A DNA stretch of 64,000 nt from Nitrosopumilus sp. (lineage in GTDB: Archaea; Thermoproteota; Nitrososphaeria; Nitrososphaerales; Nitrosopumilaceae), in contig CBDBLX010000002.1 in the NCBI GenBank assembly GCA_965207445.1, positions 1,175,849 through 1,239,848 of the forward strand, given 5' to 3'. Positions 13,972-61,730 of the stretch are shown one piece after another. A model generated the notes under the pieces. That model saw only the letters and a list, made by a program, of their open reading frames with translations, searched no databases and was not told the origin of the DNA. Made by a program: the position numbers and the translations under genes. Each line of letters begins with the position of its first letter. Position 1 is the stretch's first letter.

Positions 13972-16070
13972 GTAACCGTTCAACCCCCCCCCCCCCCCAC
14001 CCCAGCACAGCGTAGCAACAGATGCGGCTTTGACTTGATTATATACCCACGCACTACGTGTACGGGTAGTCTAGATCAGATCGCAAGGTCAATGCGCGAG
14101 GTTATAAGCAGATATCGACACTCATTATTACCGTGAAAAATAATGAGTGAAAATATCAATAACAATTCATCACGTGGATTGAATTTAACCAATATGGGTA
14201 CGGGAGTGTCTTGAGATGACTGTTGCAGTATATGAGACGGTAGTACTGCGCAGGGAACTGCACGAAATGGCTACGCGAATAGATAGTATTGTGGGTGTGG
14301 TGGAGTGCATGAGAGTCACAATGGACAGTATGAAGATGGACGTATTGAGTGAAAAAGCTAGGGCAGACTCAGCCATCCGGCAGAGAGATGAGGTGCACGA
14401 GCGGCTGGATGGGCAGATCAGATGTACAAAGGCTTTGGCAAGTCTACTGTCTGAAAACAACATAAAGTTTGATGAAATTGAACTAGCAGAGTCCACTCAC
14501 ACTCGCGATGAAAAGAGGGCAGAAAAGGCCGAAAAAGAACTCGATGATGAAAAAAAGCGAGGCAAGCGCACAAGCAACTCAAACACTCCCCCGTCCATGG
14601 GTAGCGATGCCCAGTCAAAGATTGCCAAATACTGCAAAAAGAATGCAGAAAACTACCTGGATGAAGAATAAATAGATGCAGGCAAGGGCAAGAAAGGCAA
14701 GACGACTGCATAATAGTTTCATTAAAGATCCGATAGTTTTCTAATATTTTGTATTCATAATATGTACTCAACTTCGAGATGAATATCAATCAAAATATCG
14801 GATCTTTAATCATATCAGTATGCACACAGATCAATCCGCAACATACTGAAAGAGGCATTCAGTACAAAGAGCACTCCGTCCAAAAAGAATACAAGGCGTC
14901 GCAAACAAAAGACAAAGGAGACATACATGCTTGAGGAGATGCCAGTAACAGACGTGTATGATTTGACCACCATTACGTGTACGAATCAGGATTGTGATGC
15001 CGAAATTAATGTAGTTACGATAACAAAAGATGTTGTGGACATACCAAAACCGGTAAGGGCCACAAAAAGGCGCATCAAATCATCGCGACACGTGCAAAAA
15101 AAGACACAGGATAGACACCACCACAAAGGGTCTGACAAAAGGCTCGTCGTTTGGTCCTCATCTCATGGCCTCGATAGTCTACATGTTCTTCTTTACGCTC
15201 AGACTTTCTTCAATTGCAGACATGTTGCGCATGTACGGCATATATTCAGTCTCAAAGACTACCATAATGGCTGCGTTGTCCGCAGTTGCAAAGGAAAAAT
15301 TTGCATCTAGGGTGGCATACATTACAGGTAGGCTAAAAGACACCCGCGTCCTGCTTGCCGATGAAACTCCAATCAGAATTGGCAAACACAGAGGGTATGC
15401 ATGGGTGCTCATCGGAGAGTACGGGATATCCATCCACATTCACCGGACCTGAGGCCAGTCGGTAGTAGATTTACACTACCCGTGTTTTGACATTCCAATT
15501 GTGGTGGATGGATATGCAGGATACAACAAATTCAAGGTCAAACAGCGCTGCTGGGCGCATGTCCTCCGTGAAGCAGAACTGCTTGCCGCCATACACGGCG
15601 GTAATCTTGAAGAACTGCACCACTGCCTCCAATCCATATTCAGCAGCGCAAAAAAGCTTCCGCCCGACATCACAGACGAGGAACTAGGGGGTGGGGGGAT
15701 AGACAACGTCGCACAGATCGCAGGCATATACAAGAGTCCCAGATATCTCACATTCGGCGGCAAGCTAGAAAATGCGGCGCCCGACCTCTTTACGTTTGTC
15801 AAATATCATGGAATGCCGCCCACAAACAACATGTCTGAGCGCACACTTAGGCCAGTCGTACTGCACAAAAAGATCTGGCTCATGTTCCAGAGTGCGATCG
15901 GTATACAGCAGACGATAGCATACTGATGACGTGTATGCTGACGTGGGATGCCCAGGGACACGACCTGATGGACAAAAATCACAAGGACATCATGTCAAAC
16001 TAACCCCATAGGCGCACTCGTATCGTTCATGAGAGTACTAGTCTGAGGTAGGAGGGGGTTGAACGGTTAC
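13972..16070 (+). mobile_element. Decayed IS66 element (single-gene ISBst12-like), transposase fragmented
   Basis: TIR GTAACCGTTCAACCCCC / GGGGGTTGAACGGTTAC; fragments NSNTPPS, ADETP, VDGYAGY, QRCWAH, TNNMSERTLR. Confidence 0.92.
14703..14820. repeat. ~118-bp hairpin element inside IS66 (second copy 29768-29888)
   Basis: ATTAAAGATCCGAT...ATCGGATCTTTAAT inverted repeat; the two copies are nearly identical. Confidence 0.8.
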
Positions 16071-46462: not shown

Positions 46463-46543
46463 GTAACCGTTCAACCCCCATATCTGCACCAGATATTAGG
46501 CGGCGAATATGTGCCTAAATTTGGGAAGAGGTTGAACGGTTAC
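46463..46543 (-). mobile_element. 81-bp IS66-type MITE
   Basis: Perfect GTAACCGTTCAACC/GGTTGAACGGTTAC ends. Confidence 0.92.
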
Positions 46544-46590
46544 GAATAGTACATCTATAGATTTTTATAGTATGTTGGAGTCGCAGTTGT

Positions 46591-48556
46591 ATGAATATTT
46601 CATTAACTAGACATCTACGCGTCAAGCAGATCTCTGATCCCTCTCAATCTCCAATCCCCCCCCCCCCCCCATCATTCTAACGCGCAACACCGCCTTTTTA
46701 CAATAATAACCCCTCTTTTACTTGCCGGAATTATAATCACAATAGTTGCAGCCGTTCCGGCGGCTGACTGGGCCAGCGCCGGCCACGGTTATGCAGTCCC
46801 ACCAATCCCCGACGACCTGAACAGGGCGTCCGTCACGTTCACCTCGCCCTCGGGCGGCGATCCTATCAGGGGGACCATAACACTCGAGCGCAATGCCGCC
46901 AAGCAGATGAAGTTCGCGGCCGAAATACGCGAGTGTATAGTGGACCTGGGCAACGTCGGCAATATCCCTCTCCGGTCGGCTAACATGTGCGGCAACGACG
47001 CGCACGCCAGCCTGGACCCCAACGACGCGGGGCGCGACTTTTCGCGCAACGTAATCTGGACGGACTCCAACAAGAACACCGTAGCATACTACTATATCCC
47101 GACGTACAAGACGATAACCATAGAGAAGGGCGAACAGCAAGCTCACGTCACGTGGCAGACGCACAACGACGGCACGTCGAACGTGCAGTCGTTCACGGTG
47201 GCGGTCACGCCCCTCTACGAGGGCCCCGTGTACGGACACCACTGGGTGGATCCGGACAGGCCGCCGGCCGGGACGTTCATGTCCCAGCACCACTGGAAGG
47301 CGCAGATAAACGCCCAGCCGGAGCTGATAATGGTGGCAGACAGCCCCACCGACGTCACGGAGGGCGGTGAACTGCGCGTAGTGGTGCGCGCCACCCCGAC
47401 GGCGGACCCGGAGATTACGTTCAACTACCGCGTCACCGAACACAACAGCAACATTGTCCACAACAACAATGAGGGCGACAAGAGCGACCAACAAGTCGGC
47501 GGCGAACGAGGCGTACGCATCCTGACCCAAAACGACAACCAGGATGAGATCGACGGCACCGTCACGATAACGCTGCTCCCCGGCACCGGCTACACCGTGG
47601 GCACGCCTAATACAGTCACATTCACGGTGCGGGACAACGACCCAGGCCCATTGGGTAGTGGTGGCAACAGCCCTCCGACCCCGACTACAGTCTCAATTGG
47701 GCTGGCAGGCGGCAGCTCGGAGGGCGACCCCGTCTCATTTAGCATCGGCGCTTCCCCCCCGCCCCTGTTGCCTTTGCCAGTCAACGTCACCCTTTCGGGC
47801 GCCGGGAACGTGCTCAACGCATCTGATGTGGGCTGGCGCATCGTGGAGATCCCGCCGATCGGCTCGTATACATTGGAGGTTCCGACCATAAACGACGGCG
47901 TCATAGACGCCAACAATGTTACGCTCACGATAAACCCAGGCGCCGGCTACACGCTGGGACAATTTGCAAGCTGGACTGTGGACGTCCAGGACGCCGGGAC
48001 GACGTCAAGCCTGATGCAGCCGCCCGTGTACGACAAGCTCACCCAGGCGCAGAATCTGACGACAGTCGCCATAGACCCAGCGCTGGTCGCCAACGTGACC
48101 GCGATGGCGTCCCAGGTGCAGCACGGCGCAGACCATGTGGACAGGTGGAACCGCGTTCTAGCTGCCTTTGGCGAGATTGACCACTCAAACCCGATGACCG
48201 CAGCAGAGGCACAAACCAATGCAGAAAAGTACAGCAGCCCACTATGGCCGCAGATTGTCGACGTGTTGACATTGCTAGAGGCGGCGGCAGTAGTAGAACA
48301 GGACGATCCGCAGACGCCGCCTGACACGCCGCCTGCCATAGACCCTGCTCTGATCAACAGCGTCAGGGAGCTGGCGGCACAGACGCAGCACGGCGACGCG
48401 CACGTGGACAGGTGGAACCGCGTTCTAGCTGCCTTTGGTGAGATTGACCACTCAAACCCGATGACCGCAGCAGAGGCACAAACCAATGCAGAAAAGTACA
48501 GCAGCCCGCTGTGGCCGCAGATTGCAAAAGTACTAACGCAGCTTGAGTCAAGGTAA
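46591..48556 (+). CDS. Modular secreted Calx-beta-like surface protein A; start codon out of frame via C15 tract
   Basis: The 46907 frame is open upstream through signal peptide RLFTIITPLLLAGIIITIVAAVPAADWASA to the C15 at 46656-46670; ATG at 46591 is one base off; DN.DE.DGT.TITL..G.GY.VG repeats. Confidence 0.8.
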
Positions 48557-53508: not shown

Positions 53509-54110
53509 CAGAGCAGGGCCGTATTGGCTCAGGATCGGCATCCACGCCTCTAATTTCTTTGGATCTTGGGATTCCCTTTTGGCAAGGTCAAACTGGTCAA
53601 TGATGGACTGCGCGGGAACCATCTGCCTGCCCAGCTGGGTCTGGAGGACAAACTGTGGATCGATCGGCCCTATCGACGAATGCTTCCCCATCACTATCGT
53701 GTTTGCAGAGCATGCGATCATGGTCGCAGCAGACATTGCAGCCTGGGGAATAATTACGCGTATATCGTTGAATTTGGTCCGCATGTATGTAACTAACGCC
53801 TCTGCGGCCTCGATGGAGCCACCACCCCCCCCCCCCCCCCGGACTGTGAAGGATCAGGTCCAGACTCTCGCCTTTTAGCCCGTGAATCACTTCCATCAAC
53901 CCCTGTATGTCCTCGTCTGTTATGGAAAGGACCTCCGGAGTGCCGATCGGTTTCCCAGTCTGGGTCCAAGCTGTGGCGTAAAGAATTGTGTTTCTACTTG
54001 TCAGCGAAAACAGCTGGGCTAGGTATTGTCTTCTGACCTCATCAAATGGAACTGGATTAGCCTTGGACTTTGTCTGCAGTTCGGATAAGATTTTCCCCCC
54101 AAGTCGGCAT
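53509..54110 (-). pseudogene. SDH_sah/ClpP-fold serine protease, two homopolymer frameshifts, 3' truncated
   Basis: MPTWG, LDLILHSPGG, IPQAAMSAATM, SSIGPIDPQ. Confidence 0.88.
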
Positions 54111-54346: not shown

Positions 54347-54429
54347 GTAACCGTTCAACTCCTTCCAAAATTTAGGCACAAATTCACCGCCTAACGTCTG
54401 GCGCAGGTAACCGGGGGTTGAACGGTTAC
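54347..54429 (+). mobile_element. 81-bp-family IS66-type MITE (83 bp)
   Basis: Perfect 13-bp TIRs. Confidence 0.92.
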
Positions 54430-54745: not shown

Positions 54746-56023
54746 TCAGGCAGAGGCACGTATGGATGCGTTTTGAATGAACGTTATCCAAGCATCACAA
54801 CTATCTGCAAGATCAGAGTCTTTTACTGGTATAATGTCAATTCCAATTGCCTTGGCAGGCGTCATGTTGTTTTTGAGGCTTGTGTGTTTTCTAAAAAAGT
54901 TATGATATACTATGATCAGACGTAAGAGTCCGGGGTCCTCTGATTTTAGTCCACATACACACTTGAGTCTATCCTCAAATTCTCCATTGAGTCGTTCGTA
55001 GACGTTATTTTGATTAAAAAGATTCTGTATGTGTATATCACGTATGTGTACAAACATCGATCCAGCCCGTCTAAAGAATACTTTTCTGGCAGGCTTTATG
55101 AACTCCTGCAGTCCATCACTTACAAGTATGCGGGGTAGCCTACGCGTACGGGCAGCAGCCATTTGAAACAGGTTAGTGGGATCAGATCCCTTTTTCTTCT
55201 TGAGGATCTCGTGGGATAAAACAAATCGGCTTGCGCCATCAATCACACCAAACAAATATCTGGTCTGTTTACGTATTTTAAATTCTAGTTCGTCGACATG
55301 CCACTGAAACCATGCATCAAGACACAACAAACTTGAGAACCGTAGCATGATTCGCGAATACTCATCAGTCCACCTATGTATTGTAGATGGGTTTATGATG
55401 ATCTCATCCATTGCAAGCTGCACACATACTTCTTCTGGAGACATTTTAGTTGCCATCATGGACAACGCTTTTGCTATTACGGATGCATCAAAATGCCGCC
55501 CCTTGAACCCTTCCATTCCAGAAAATGTACGTCCACATTTTTTGCACATGTATCGCCTCACAGATCTTTTTCTCTTACACTTGCGCTCTCCCCATCCTAC
55601 CACATCTTTGGATCTGCATTTTGGATACTGACATCTCAATTTTTTGCGCCTAATCTGTATCCTTTTTCTACGCCCACACCACCACTCTTTGTCTAAGAGC
55701 TTGTATACCCCCACCACATGCTTGCATATCTTTTTTCCATTTTGATTGGCCTCACACTGACATCTCATTCCAAGTGAACTAAGAGACACCACATACAATA
55801 GACCTTGCACAGTTTGCGATGCGACTGTCCATTTAATCGAGCTTAGTGTAGTTATGGCACCTGCAATGCATGCAATCTGAATGCCTGCTTTCCTAATTGC
55901 ATCAATCTGAGCCTTGGAGCGCCTCTGCTTGCCAGGCTTTGGGCTGTCATTTTCCAATGTTTTTGATCTTGATTGAGTAGTTTCGTCTACCACCTTTTCT
56001 TCCTGAACTGTTTTTTGTTTCAT
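54746..56023 (-). CDS. IS6-like DDE transposase with SWIM and Zn-ribbon domains
   Basis: CQC...CKH, C..C/CKKC, WHVDE, VSDG, NNVYERLNG; start placed at MKQK. Confidence 0.88.
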   Translation of the reverse strand: MKQKTVQEEKVVDETTQSRSKTLENDSPKPGKQRRSKAQIDAIRKAGIQIACIAGAITTLSSIKWTVASQTVQGLLYVVSLSSLGMRCQCEANQNGKKICKHVVGVYKLLDKEWWCGRRKRIQIRRKKLRCQYPKCRSKDVVGWGERKCKRKRSVRRYMCKKCGRTFSGMEGFKGRHFDASVIAKALSMMATKMSPEEVCVQLAMDEIIINPSTIHRWTDEYSRIMLRFSSLLCLDAWFQWHVDELEFKIRKQTRYLFGVIDGASRFVLSHEILKKKKGSDPTNLFQMAAARTRRLPRILVSDGLQEFIKPARKVFFRRAGSMFVHIRDIHIQNLFNQNNVYERLNGEFEDRLKCVCGLKSEDPGLLRLIIVYHNFFRKHTSLKNNMTPAKAIGIDIIPVKDSDLADSCDAWITFIQNASIRASA

Positions 56024-56110
56024 TGTACATATATCACCAATTGGATATATAAGCATTCGTGCGTAATCCGATGTCAGAGACGTTATAACGTTGTACTGAG
56101 AACAACAAAC

Positions 56111-56284
56111 ATGACTAAATGGGCTGCCAATGCCACTGAATTCCAAGTATCCATAACCCACAACGTGAAAAGAGGTACCAGTTACTCGTACATTCCAAAG
56201 CCAGTCCTTGCCAAACTTGGTAACCCAGAGGGTTTGAAGTTTATCATACGTGGCGACAAAATACTAGTTACGTGTCCGGATTGA
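56111..56284 (+). CDS. Small AbrB/MazE-like DNA-binding protein inside IS6
   Basis: SYSYIPKPVLAKLGNPEGLKF resembles the IPK...LG swapped-hairpin pattern. Confidence 0.6.
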   Translation: MTKWAANATEFQVSITHNVKRGTSYSYIPKPVLAKLGNPEGLKFIIRGDKILVTCPD

Positions 56285-58890: not shown

Positions 58891-61730
58891 ATGATTATTA
58901 CGCGCCACCCACTCAACTGTATACACTCACTCGGGGGGGGGGGGGGGGGGGCAGGCAGGCAGGCAGTAATAGATCACGCACCAAACGTCGCGTTTTATTA
59001 CCTATCATACTAGCCATACTAACAGTAACAGCAATCTCACTTTTACCATCTGATCAGCAAGCCTACGCCCAGACAATAGTTGCAGTGCCTGCTGACTGGG
59101 ATTATACACCCAATGGCCTGGCAGCCGGGGACACGTTCAGACTACTGTTCTCACCATCCGAGGGCCATTCATTTACGGATACAAAGATACAGGACCTGAT
59201 TGAATCATCCAACATCTTTACGTACGGCAAGTCGACGTACTATCGTATAACCGATGATCCTACTGTTGAGTGTTATGGCTATTATGGCCAGATGGTCGGC
59301 TCAGATGTCTATTGGGATATTGTTAAAAGGAACAATAACGGTGAGGGAACTGACATAAATCGAAACGGCGTGGATTATTGTTATCATATGTATAAACGGA
59401 CGGTAAACGTTGCAAACTCAGAGCCCTCTGCGATGCGCGAGTTCTCAGAGTATTTTCGTGTACTGCATTTCGGTCACTCTGATCGCGACAGCGTCAGGAG
59501 TAACACTTACACTCAAGAAGGAGTAGACGTACCGATATACTGGCTTGGTAGCAATAGCAAGATAGCTGACAACTATAATGACTTTTACGCAGGAGACACA
59601 CCTGGCGAGTCAAGTGAAAGCCGCAACGAGCACGGCAAGTATACGCAGGCCGTTAGATACTCTTATGGCATATCTCCAATATTCAGAGTCACCGCGGAGG
59701 ATGTGCCTGCTTATGTCATACCGACTGTTACACTATCTCCATCCCGGGCTCTGGAGCAGATTGAGGGTGGACAGACTAGAACTTACATACATCTATCTAA
59801 TCCCTCACCCGTTGATATAACGGTTAGAGCTTTTGCTGTTGACTCTGGTGACTTTGTAATGTCAGTGTTTAGGCCTCATCTAAGCCCTGCTGTTTTCGAG
59901 AATTCACTTAATGCCGGTGATGTGCGAGGTAATAGAATGCAACTTATCACAGATGATGACAATGTCCATGAACCAGACGGCACTATAACGTACACTCTAC
60001 TTCCCGGGGATGGTTACATCGTAGGTGAGCCGTCGACTGTCACATTTACCATTCGAGACAACGACCCGGACCCCAACCCACCTCCACCTCCACCACCACC
60101 TCCTCCCTGCACCACAGACAAACCATGCGTCACACTGGACACATCTGGCTCTTATTTTGAGGGCCGCAAGGTGTCGATACCCATACACGTGGACCCACCG
60201 CACATCTCAGGTACTGCGCTGCAAGTAATGTTCGAGACTAGAGACAGTGGCCATATACTTGAAGCATCCGACAATACGATGCACATATTCGGTGTGCACG
60301 GCAGAGTCGACTACTTTCAGTCTGAGACGGTAAGGGATTGCAACCCCTCTGGTCAGAATTGGATAGAGTTTAGACTAAAACCCAGTAAAGACTACCAGAT
60401 ACGAGACGGCGATGAAAACTGGCAGAGGATGACACTGATTGAACACAAACCGCACCCTGACGGCCCCGTCTTGTGGCTTGACAAGAGCGTCATTGATAGC
60501 CAACTACCAGTGACAGAGGGCGACACAGTCGACCTTACTGGACTGATCAAATCAGAGTACTTGGCTTGTTCTGACATCCGTCCCGTATTACACCTGTCCG
60601 TCAATGGAGGCGTTTCGACTGATACTTCATTTACTGTTGCCCATAGCAGTGAAGCACTGATTGCACAGGGCAAAAATCAGAATCCCAGCGCCGACATCGT
60701 CACAAAGAGCAACAGCAACGACGACAACCCTGCTGGCTCCATCACAATTACACTGCAATCGGGCACCGGCTACCAGGTCGGCTCTGCAAACACCGTGACG
60801 ATCTCAGTGGCAGACAGCCCCCATGTCAATAACTCCCCGCCACCACCACCCGAGGTATCAATTGGTATATCAGGCGGTGGTTCAGAGGGTGACCACGTCT
60901 CCTTTGGCATCAACGCGTCCCCCGCACCCCAGTCTCCTTTGCCAGTCAACGTCACCCTTTCGGGCGCCGGCGGGATTCTGAACGCCTCTGATGTGGGCTG
61001 GCGCATCGTGGAGATTCCACCGATCGGCTCGTATACGCTGGAGGTCCCGACCATAGATGACGGCGTCAAAGACGTCAACAATGTTACACTCACGATAAAC
61101 CCCGGCGCCGGCTACACGCTGGGACAATTTACAAGCTGGACTGTGGACGTCCAGGACGCCGGGACGACGTCAAGTCTGATGCAGCCGCCGCCCGTGTACA
61201 ACAAACTCACACAGGCGCAGAATCTGACGGTAGTCGCCATAGACCCAGCGCTGGTCGCCAACGTGACTGCGATGGCCAACCAGACGCAGCACGGCGACGC
61301 GCATGTGGAGAGGTGGAACCGTGTACTGGCCGCGTTTGGGTACACCACGCACGACAACCCGACGACTGCAGCAGAGGCCCGCGACAACGCCGAGAAATAC
61401 AGTAGTCCGCTGTGGCCCCTGATTGCCGACGTGCTGACATTACTAGAGGCAGCAGCAGAACAAGACGGGCCGCAGACGCCACCGGACGTACCGACTGAGC
61501 CAGACGTGCCGCCTGCCATAGACCCTGCGCTGATCAACAGCGTCAGGGAGCTGGCGGCCCAGACACAGCACGGCGATGCGCACGTGGACAGATGGAACCG
61601 CGTCCTAGCTGCCTTTGGTGAGATTACCCATGACAACCCGATGACCGCAGCAGAGGCCCGCACCAACGCCGAGAAATACAGTAGCCCACTATGGCCGCAG
61701 ATTGCAGACGCGCTAGCGGCGCGCGAATAG
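58891..61730 (+). CDS. Modular secreted Calx-beta-like surface protein B; start codon out of frame via G19/(GCAG)4 tract
   Basis: The 59085 frame is open upstream through RTKRRVLLPIILAILTVTAISLLPSDQQAYAQ to G19 at 58933-58951; ATG at 58891 needs +1 base. Confidence 0.8.

Follow-up and report, generated by a model that had tools for sequence, protein, structure and literature searches.

The window analysed here is a stretch of 64,000 nucleotides from a Nitrosopumilus sp. genome (G000:C2:1175849–1239848, C2 being the contig; 2.61 Mb in two contigs, 39.6% GC), and it carries on its forward strand a surface-protein gene in which a run of fifteen cytosines (C15) lies between the start codon and the export signal. 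Direct reading of the window sequence gives exactly 15 C at 46656–46670, beginning 65 nt after the A of the ATG at 46591–46593 and located 5' of the hydrophobic core of the signal peptide. A TATA-like box (TTTTTATA, 46562–46569) precedes the ATG by 21 nt, and the start codon and conserved leader codons (MNISLTRHLRVKQISDPSQSPI) occupy 46591–46655, immediately 5' of the tract. The frame opened by this ATG, which reads the tract as proline codons, translates as MNISLTRHLRVKQISDPSQSPIPPPPPSF and ends after 29 codons at a TAA (46678–46680). The listed open reading frame (ORF) of the gene, 46907–48556, is offset by +1 from the frame of the ATG, and its own frame is open back to 46607. After the tract it encodes a basic stretch and then a hydrophobic signal or anchor segment of 20-odd residues with an AxA-type end (LFTIITPLLLAGIIITIVAAVPAADWASA, 46694–46780), as supported by translation and paralog alignment. 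The gene body (46670–48556) comprises 627 codons after the tract and a stop, with no internal stop, and its assignment is based on translation, paralogs, and a fold match.

The tract separates the 29-codon ATG frame from the 627-codon open body, and either C14 or C17 would join the two; the fused form is seen in an in-frame paralog, P0002. At 15 nt, the tract is longer than the approximately 8 nt from which a mononucleotide run in a 5' coding region is regarded as hypermutable. An alternative in-frame start 3' of the tract was ruled out, as a scan of the body frame between 46607 and 46907 found no ATG, GTG, or TTG. The preliminary description of this DNA had held that the listed frame is open upstream through a signal peptide, that the ATG at 46591 runs through C15 into a TAA, and that C14 or C17 would restore the full protein, and the translations bear out all of this. 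In archaeal promoters, a TATA box about 25 nt before the start codon fits a leaderless or near-leaderless mRNA, and by analogy the box at this locus, centred about 25 nt before the ATG, would fit such a transcript. The tract lies 3' of the ATG and not in the interval between the start codon and the box at 46562–46569, and it does not have the placement of a promoter-spacer switch.

The genome contains four paralogs of this gene, counting the window copy. These are unrelated in alignment 5' of the TATA-like box, and homology begins at the box itself and continues through the next 21–22 nt, the ATG, the leader, the tract, and the signal peptide. Because the paralogs conserve the box, ATG, leader, and tract, and because in-frame proteins use this ATG, the start codon at 46591 is taken to be real. 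The copies differ in tract length and in state, with ON denoting a body in frame with the ATG. The window copy (C15) is OFF with a body offset of +1, as is the paralog at C2:1048457 (C9, offset +1); the paralog at C2:397364 (C12) is OFF with an offset of −1; and the paralog at C2:2151321 (C15) is ON (offset 0), reading in frame from the shared ATG as the 666-amino acid protein P0002.

All four bodies are free of stops over 627–641 codons (627–637 codons in the OFF copies), at a pairwise nucleotide identity of 84–88% (12–16% divergence). The ratio of nonsynonymous to synonymous substitution rates (dN/dS) is 0.34–0.58 over all paralog pairs and is no higher, 0.34–0.49, between OFF copies. The stop-free bodies and the OFF-OFF ratios together indicate that the OFF copies have evolved as coding sequence. 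The window copy itself does not look like a decaying pseudogene, having no stop in 627 codons and a dN/dS of 0.42–0.49 relative to the other copies. Body codons ~250–300 are hypervariable, with 52–69% nucleotide identity between paralogs as compared to 85–99% elsewhere, and are located at the start of a Calx-beta-like domain.

Proteins from other assemblies provide further alleles. P0004 and P0025 begin with the same leader, and P0004 constitutes a further in-frame allele. P0025 (658 amino acids) belongs to the protein cluster of the C9 OFF paralog, and is identical to the body of that paralog at 622 of 630 positions, its identity to P0002 being just 82%. The leader of P0025, MNISLIRQLRVKQ / MNISLIRQLRVKQRSVPSQSPPPP, is in frame with its body. 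Near-identical (99%) alleles of one family member thus exist in predicted ON and OFF states, differing in the tract region. The called proteins P0009 and P0011, also from other assemblies, start at the internal methionine used by the listed ORF in the window, and P0026, from another assembly, starts at the same place as P0005, the truncated call for the C12 paralog. These three starts lie 3' of the hydrophobic segment or at its C-terminal end, and, as far as protein records tell, are what upstream frame breaks would produce. The window copy is recorded as a 408-amino acid fragment (P0012), which is the sole member of its protein cluster.

No Pfam family matched P0002 at an E value of 0.001, with DUF1627 falling below threshold (23 bits versus a cut-off of 28.1). 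An AlphaFold model built from an 11-sequence alignment was poor overall (mean predicted local distance difference test score, pLDDT, 52.7). Residues 245–360 (block pLDDT 66–87) match the Calx-beta structure 3gin_A (Z 10.7; root-mean-square deviation, 2.8; 108 aligned), with additional Calx-beta matches to 3ead_A (Z 10.6) and 3fq4_A (Z 10.2), and are thus modeled as a Calx-beta-like β-sandwich, at the level of fold only. The C-terminus consists of two helical repeats of ~70 residues each, common to 11 other genes of the genome. The window gene has ~53% GC in a 40% GC genome, and homologs in relatives occur in ~64% GC loci, a contrast that hints at exchange between symbiont lineages.

Long G/C runs are in large excess across the genome. 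There are 34 runs of at least 11 nt (11–24 nt) versus 0.077 expected from base composition, and the length distribution is slightly depleted at 7–8 nt, has a second mode at 12–16 nt, and extends to 24 nt. A/T runs match expectation, with a longest run of 13 nt and no second mode. Thirteen of the 39 G/C runs of at least 9 nt are within the first 120 nt of open frames of at least 300 amino acids, the same placement being found for 766 of 20,000 random positions (3.8%) and 22 of 404 A/T runs of at least 8 nt. The binomial probability is ~1e-9, the paralogs among these not being independent and amounting to about seven separate contexts. The excess extends to surface, glycosylation, and restriction-modification genes, the latter two being identified by Pfam matches (N6_N4_Mtase; Mrr_cat_2, ResIII, and N6_Mtase; Glyco_trans_1_2). 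Five of the 11 tracts that have a clear ATG are in frame.

At least 10 surface-protein genes, the four paralogs included, each have such a tract. A search of this genome with the C-terminal half of the window protein gave 13 matches, in 12 genes including its own, and three other N-terminal families among these share the layout of an ATG, 11–20 codons, a tract (poly-G on the sense strand), and a hydrophobic segment. In one family, copies with G14 (C2:1605723) and G11 (C2:1791884) are in frame and a G19 copy is out of frame; this G19 copy is also in the window, on the forward strand at 58891–61730, with its ATG at 58891 and the tract starting 42 nt later (58933–58951). A second family has a G12 copy out of frame and a G17 copy for which a GTG, unlike the nearest ATG, is in frame, and the third has a G13 copy in frame. 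Offsets of OFF copies in the poly-G families are −1 and +1. Since poly-proline and poly-glycine both serve, the device would appear to act on DNA rather than on codon or peptide. Two giant β-propeller/fn3/FG-GAP proteins also have tracts just 5' of them.

Three further tracts involve enzymes. At C2:982000–988500, the stop of a 988-amino acid ResIII gene overlaps the ATG of an 848-amino acid Type III-like N6_N4 methylase, which is translationally coupled to it, has C12 in codons 9–13, and is in frame as assembled. This Type III-like pair is a candidate archaeal phasevarion. At C2:1298000–1303500, a Type ISP-like enzyme (Mrr_cat_2, ResIII, Helicase_C, and N6_Mtase/Eco57I) is split at G15 into frames of 247 and 1249 amino acids, the split falling after the Walker A motif but before the helicase motif that follows it. 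At C2:1817000–1819500, G16 is found at the 5' end of a 366-amino acid Glyco_trans_1_2 protein whose start codon is ambiguous. Glycosyltransferases are a classic phase-variable class in bacteria. Surface structures and restriction-modification systems are likewise named as phase-variable gene classes in a 2025 review (PMC11868660).

Runs of C12 or longer number 32 in this genome and occur in seven of 24 genomes of the same genus (1–7 tracts each, mostly in assemblies of one or two contigs), with none in 16 genomes from other genera of the order. In one congener (G017), five of seven G12–14 tracts fall in the 5' coding sequence of a different family of paralogs, one with five members (L021, L023–L026), whose layout is MKYVASS...ITASALLTVFAAFGLAQR-G12-14-...ITASALLTVFAVLG... 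and in which two copies of a hydrophobic segment flank the G run; two members are in frame, two are out of frame, and one has a replaced 5' end. In another genome (G418), homologs of the window family have runs of C13 and C10 in the interval from a TATA-like box to the ATG, as in promoter-spacer switches, and a contig of that assembly (C88) begins at a C11 run, metagenome-assembled genomes from short reads being prone, in all likelihood, to breaks at such tracts. These comparisons indicate that G/C runs at the 5' ends of surface-protein genes are a trait of the group and not of one assembly. They favor the proposal of phase variation in the preliminary description, for which comparison with related genomes had been suggested as a check: OFF paralogs are intact, an ON allele is 99% identical to an OFF copy, other genes have tracts at the same position, and the same theme recurs in relatives in other gene families (G017) and in promoters (G418). 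In a genome from another genus of the family (G090; L046, L050, and L055), C10–11 or G10 runs were observed near homologs of the C-terminal module, flanked by TTAAC/GTTAA-like half-sites. P0002 matched none of 60 same-genus genomes at an E value of 1e-20, and five of 400 genomes of the family at 1e-15. A leader pattern of two conserved motifs with a variable gap had no match in the genome or metagenome contig collections, and a search of the genome contig collection yielded 40 pattern matches but no relatives of P0002.

Variation in tract length was assessed from Logan contigs of four runs (X1–X4) of one sample. The tract that varied is at 53825–53840 on the reverse strand of the window, in a gene (~54109–53464) encoding a ClpP-class (SDH_protease/NfeD-like) protein that is OFF as assembled. 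This tract, G16 on the gene strand and C16 in the assembly, is C15 in X1, C19 in X2, and C16 in X4, and X3 has a contig break at the tract. The G16 run encodes glycines of the ClpP-class SPGG motif, through which a length of 15 would restore the frame, and a miniature inverted-repeat transposable element (MITE) interrupts the gene in its 3' part. An X3 contig with eight fewer G at 58933 was considered as a variant of the G19 tract and rejected, as it has 10 other differences and is taken to derive from the G11 paralog. Where the two contigs of the assembly share sequence, there is a single long tract, with lengths of C20 and C24 in the two; the contigs also differ at three A/T runs of 8–9 nt and at several tri- and dodecanucleotide repeats. 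Long runs are unstable in this population, and sequencing slippage could contribute to the result at 53825. No match to a MutS_V domain was found in this genome, which is 96% complete, and a match to NucS_C was below threshold. By analogy with bacteria lacking MutS-type repair, slippage loops in long runs would go largely uncorrected.

The arrangement resembles several known bacterial systems. Neisseria pilC has a poly-G tract in its signal-peptide coding region, and the window gene is similar in that a G/C homopolymer, whose length would shift the frame ON and OFF, separates the start codon of a surface protein from its export signal. Unlike pilC, the window gene, in which switching is putative, belongs to an archaeon, has a TATA-box promoter and probably a leaderless mRNA, and has a tract of 15 nt (9–19 nt across the surface tracts). 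Neisseria opa genes form a multigene family with CTCTT repeats in the leader-peptide coding region; as in opa, the paralogous surface genes described here each have their own leader tract, are independently in or out of frame, and have hypervariable body regions, but the repeat is a mononucleotide run and the proteins are unrelated (Calx-beta-like, with no Pfam family). Bordetella fim and Neisseria meningitidis opc and porA are switched by homopolymers in the promoter spacer, which the C13 and C10 runs of the G418 homologs resemble; the window tract differs in lying 65 nt 3' of the A of the ATG and acting on reading frame. Campylobacter jejuni lacks MutS-type repair, and the absence of a MutS_V match is a likeness to it. 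Similarity to the phasomes of C. jejuni and Helicobacter pylori extends to low GC content and a few dozen G/C tracts, far above expectation, in surface, glycosyltransferase, and restriction-modification genes, with differences in that this organism is an archaeon, a nitrifying sponge associate rather than a pathogen, and about a quarter of its tracts are on MITE copies. Poly-G tracts of Campylobacter are described in PMC539331, and phase-variable Type III mod genes, or phasevarions, in PMC13076061. The Type III-like methylase with C12 in codons 9–13 is like the latter, with the difference that it is in frame as assembled; it is a gene other than the window locus.

The genome has an archaeal 16S rRNA gene (1453 bits against the archaeal small subunit model) and an archaeal amoA (E value 1.3e-116), and a homolog of the window protein is labelled by its source as coming from a Thaumarchaeota metagenome-assembled genome. 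The runs containing the locus are four from one coded organism or sample, along with small shares in sponge metagenomes. We read the organism as an ammonia-oxidizing archaeon associated with a sponge, the host assignment coming from run labels only. Upstream of the surface-protein gene, at 46463–46543, is an 81-bp MITE-like element with terminal inverted repeats GTAACCGTTCAAC / GTTGAACGGTTAC, which ends 47 nt 5' of the ATG. An invertible promoter was considered at this inverted repeat and rejected, as the element is one of 56 intact 81-bp copies in the genome, which has 208 terminal-repeat matches in all; another lies in the window at 54347–54429. Paralog homology stops short of the element, which is context and not part of the switch. 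In about 10 copies, a C4–5 beside one MITE end has grown to C12–C24, for example at 13984 in the window (C15). The 121-kb contig C1 is a second haplotype, 98–99% identical, of C2:2486277 to the contig end plus C2:1–119513, which indicates that two strains were co-assembled and fits a contamination figure of 5.5%. The two haplotypes differ by insertion sequence (IS) insertions and repeat-length indels. The genome contains at least 20 copies of a ~1.67-kb element (C1:62052–63742 and more than 20 places in C2) and at least four of a ~2.1-kb element, and a DDE transposase ORF occurs in the window at 54749–56263. IS expansion is typical of host-restricted genomes.

We consider it probable that C15 is a slipped-strand ON/OFF phase-variation tract, caught in the OFF state, and one of a multi-locus set. 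In this mechanism, transcription would proceed from the TATA box ~25 nt 5' of the ATG, and the ATG would open a 22-codon leader. The C-run would be read as prolines in the n-region of the signal peptide, which would tolerate any number of these, and would be followed by the hydrophobic export segment. Gain or loss of C by replication slippage would move the body in or out of frame, such that the C15 allele would be OFF and yield a 29-residue peptide only, with C14 or C17 being ON. Cells of one population would then show different combinations of tract-bearing surface proteins. Slippage as the cause, its reversibility, a phenotypic effect, and a selective benefit against host or virus are features that we infer, as are heterogeneity at 46656 and its effect on expression.

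Several observations weigh against phase variation at this locus. No in-frame allele of the window copy was found, the P0012 cluster having one member, and among the contigs no length variant is listed for 46656, nor is it established that a contig bridges this tract. The variants at 53825 could have arisen through library or sequencer slippage, in a gene that is MITE-truncated anyway. Because the paralogs are related, the independent contexts behind the placement statistic number about seven, and the five of 11 tracts in frame are indistinguishable from the one third expected for random lengths. About 10 of the 39 tracts are beside MITE terminal repeats or intergenic, from which it follows that G/C runs expand without a need for selection. 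Lastly, a one-base miscount of C15 is possible for the window copy, and would alone explain its OFF state.

Such a miscount is the basis of one alternative, in which the true tract is in frame and stable, and the gene simply encodes a constitutively expressed surface protein that contains a run of prolines. The genome, being in two contigs, was probably assembled from long reads, and indel errors classically fall at long G/C homopolymers; one base fewer restores the frame, and the length of C15 at 46656 is that given by the assembly. Against this, a signature of split genes was seen at none of 404 A/T runs of at least 8 nt, the corresponding counts being one among the 39 G/C runs and 23 among 5000 random positions, which indicates that homopolymer indels are not a general problem of the assembly. 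A run as short as C9 is rarely miscounted by consensus methods, making this error much less likely for the C9 copy, and that paralog is already out of frame. In addition, the 99%-identical alleles differ in state and in the length of the tract region between assemblies, P0009, P0011, and P0026 of other assemblies also start internally, and stability is unlikely for runs of 12–24 nt in a genome without a MutS match. We regard a miscount as an unlikely explanation. Expansion of G/C runs as a nonadaptive by-product of mutation, with no mismatch repair of indels and with the OFF copies being young pseudogenes, would account for the tracts beside MITE ends, in which an ancestral C4–5 has grown to C12–24, and for those in intergenic DNA. 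The depletion at 7–8 nt and enrichment at 12–16 nt fit threshold-driven expansion, three of the four paralogs are OFF, and the many IS and MITE copies are as in genomes under relaxed selection. This explanation is difficult to reconcile with OFF bodies that lack stops and further frameshifts over 627–637 codons at 12–16% divergence and have OFF-OFF dN/dS values of 0.34–0.49, or with a tract that, across duplications in four gene families and also in other species, has stayed at one permissive position. The classes affected are surface proteins, restriction-modification genes, and a glycosyltransferase, and one paralog occurs in nature as both ON and OFF alleles. A purely mutational origin consequently seems improbable to us.

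Slippage could also occur at the level of expression, with the DNA fixed at C15 and stuttering by RNA polymerase or a +1 ribosomal slip on CCC making the tract a dimmer. In bacteria, RNA polymerase is known to slip on long homopolymers and ribosomes to shift by +1 at CCC-C, and the body of the window gene is in the +1 frame. However, the paralogs have offsets of 0, +1, +1, and −1, and OFF offsets in the poly-G families are also mixed (−1 and +1), which is not the pattern of a programmed frameshift or of a transcriptional realignment site; with poly-C in one family and poly-G in three on the sense strand, there is no conserved slippery codon or stimulator. This explanation appears very unlikely.

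Homopolymer contingency loci are textbook biology of host-adapted bacteria. A 2025 review notes that multi-locus phase-variable genomes seem restricted to pathogens and calls for archaeal surveys (PMC11868660), and Orsi et al. (2010) reported short A/T tracts in 18 archaeal genomes, with poly-C/G not enriched at 5' ends (PMC2831843). Pyrococcus polymerases slip in vitro (Castillo-Lizardo et al., 2014; PMC4134008). A 2025 preprint states that contingency loci have been studied in archaea, with its references 13 and 14 being a bacterial review and a review of repetitive elements (10.1101/2025.10.21.683753), and the available text of a 2026 methyltransferase review mentions no phase-variable archaeal system (PMC13076061). 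A full-text literature search, covering abstracts and passages of main text, found no description of multi-locus G/C-tract switching in an archaeon. The mechanism is classical, and its multi-locus occurrence in an ammonia-oxidizing archaeal symbiont is undescribed as far as these searches show.

A broader reading, for and against which we find the case evenly balanced, is that this sponge-associated nitrifying archaeon has a pathogen-style phasome, in which slippage in G/C tracts switches at least a dozen genes independently of one another. These would include four surface families sharing a C-terminal module, the Type III methylase, the Type ISP enzyme, and the glycosyltransferase, with sister species having the same device in other families and in promoters. 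In practice, gene callers truncate or miss such genes, as with the 408-residue record of the window copy. If the phasome is real, a sponge-dwelling ammonia-oxidizing archaeon varies its surface and restriction systems stochastically, and stochastic variation of surface and defence would be a feature of archaeal symbiosis, convergent with bacteria. The loci described here would then provide sequence-defined sites at which an uncultured symbiont could be tested for bet-hedging against viruses or phagocytosis by its host.

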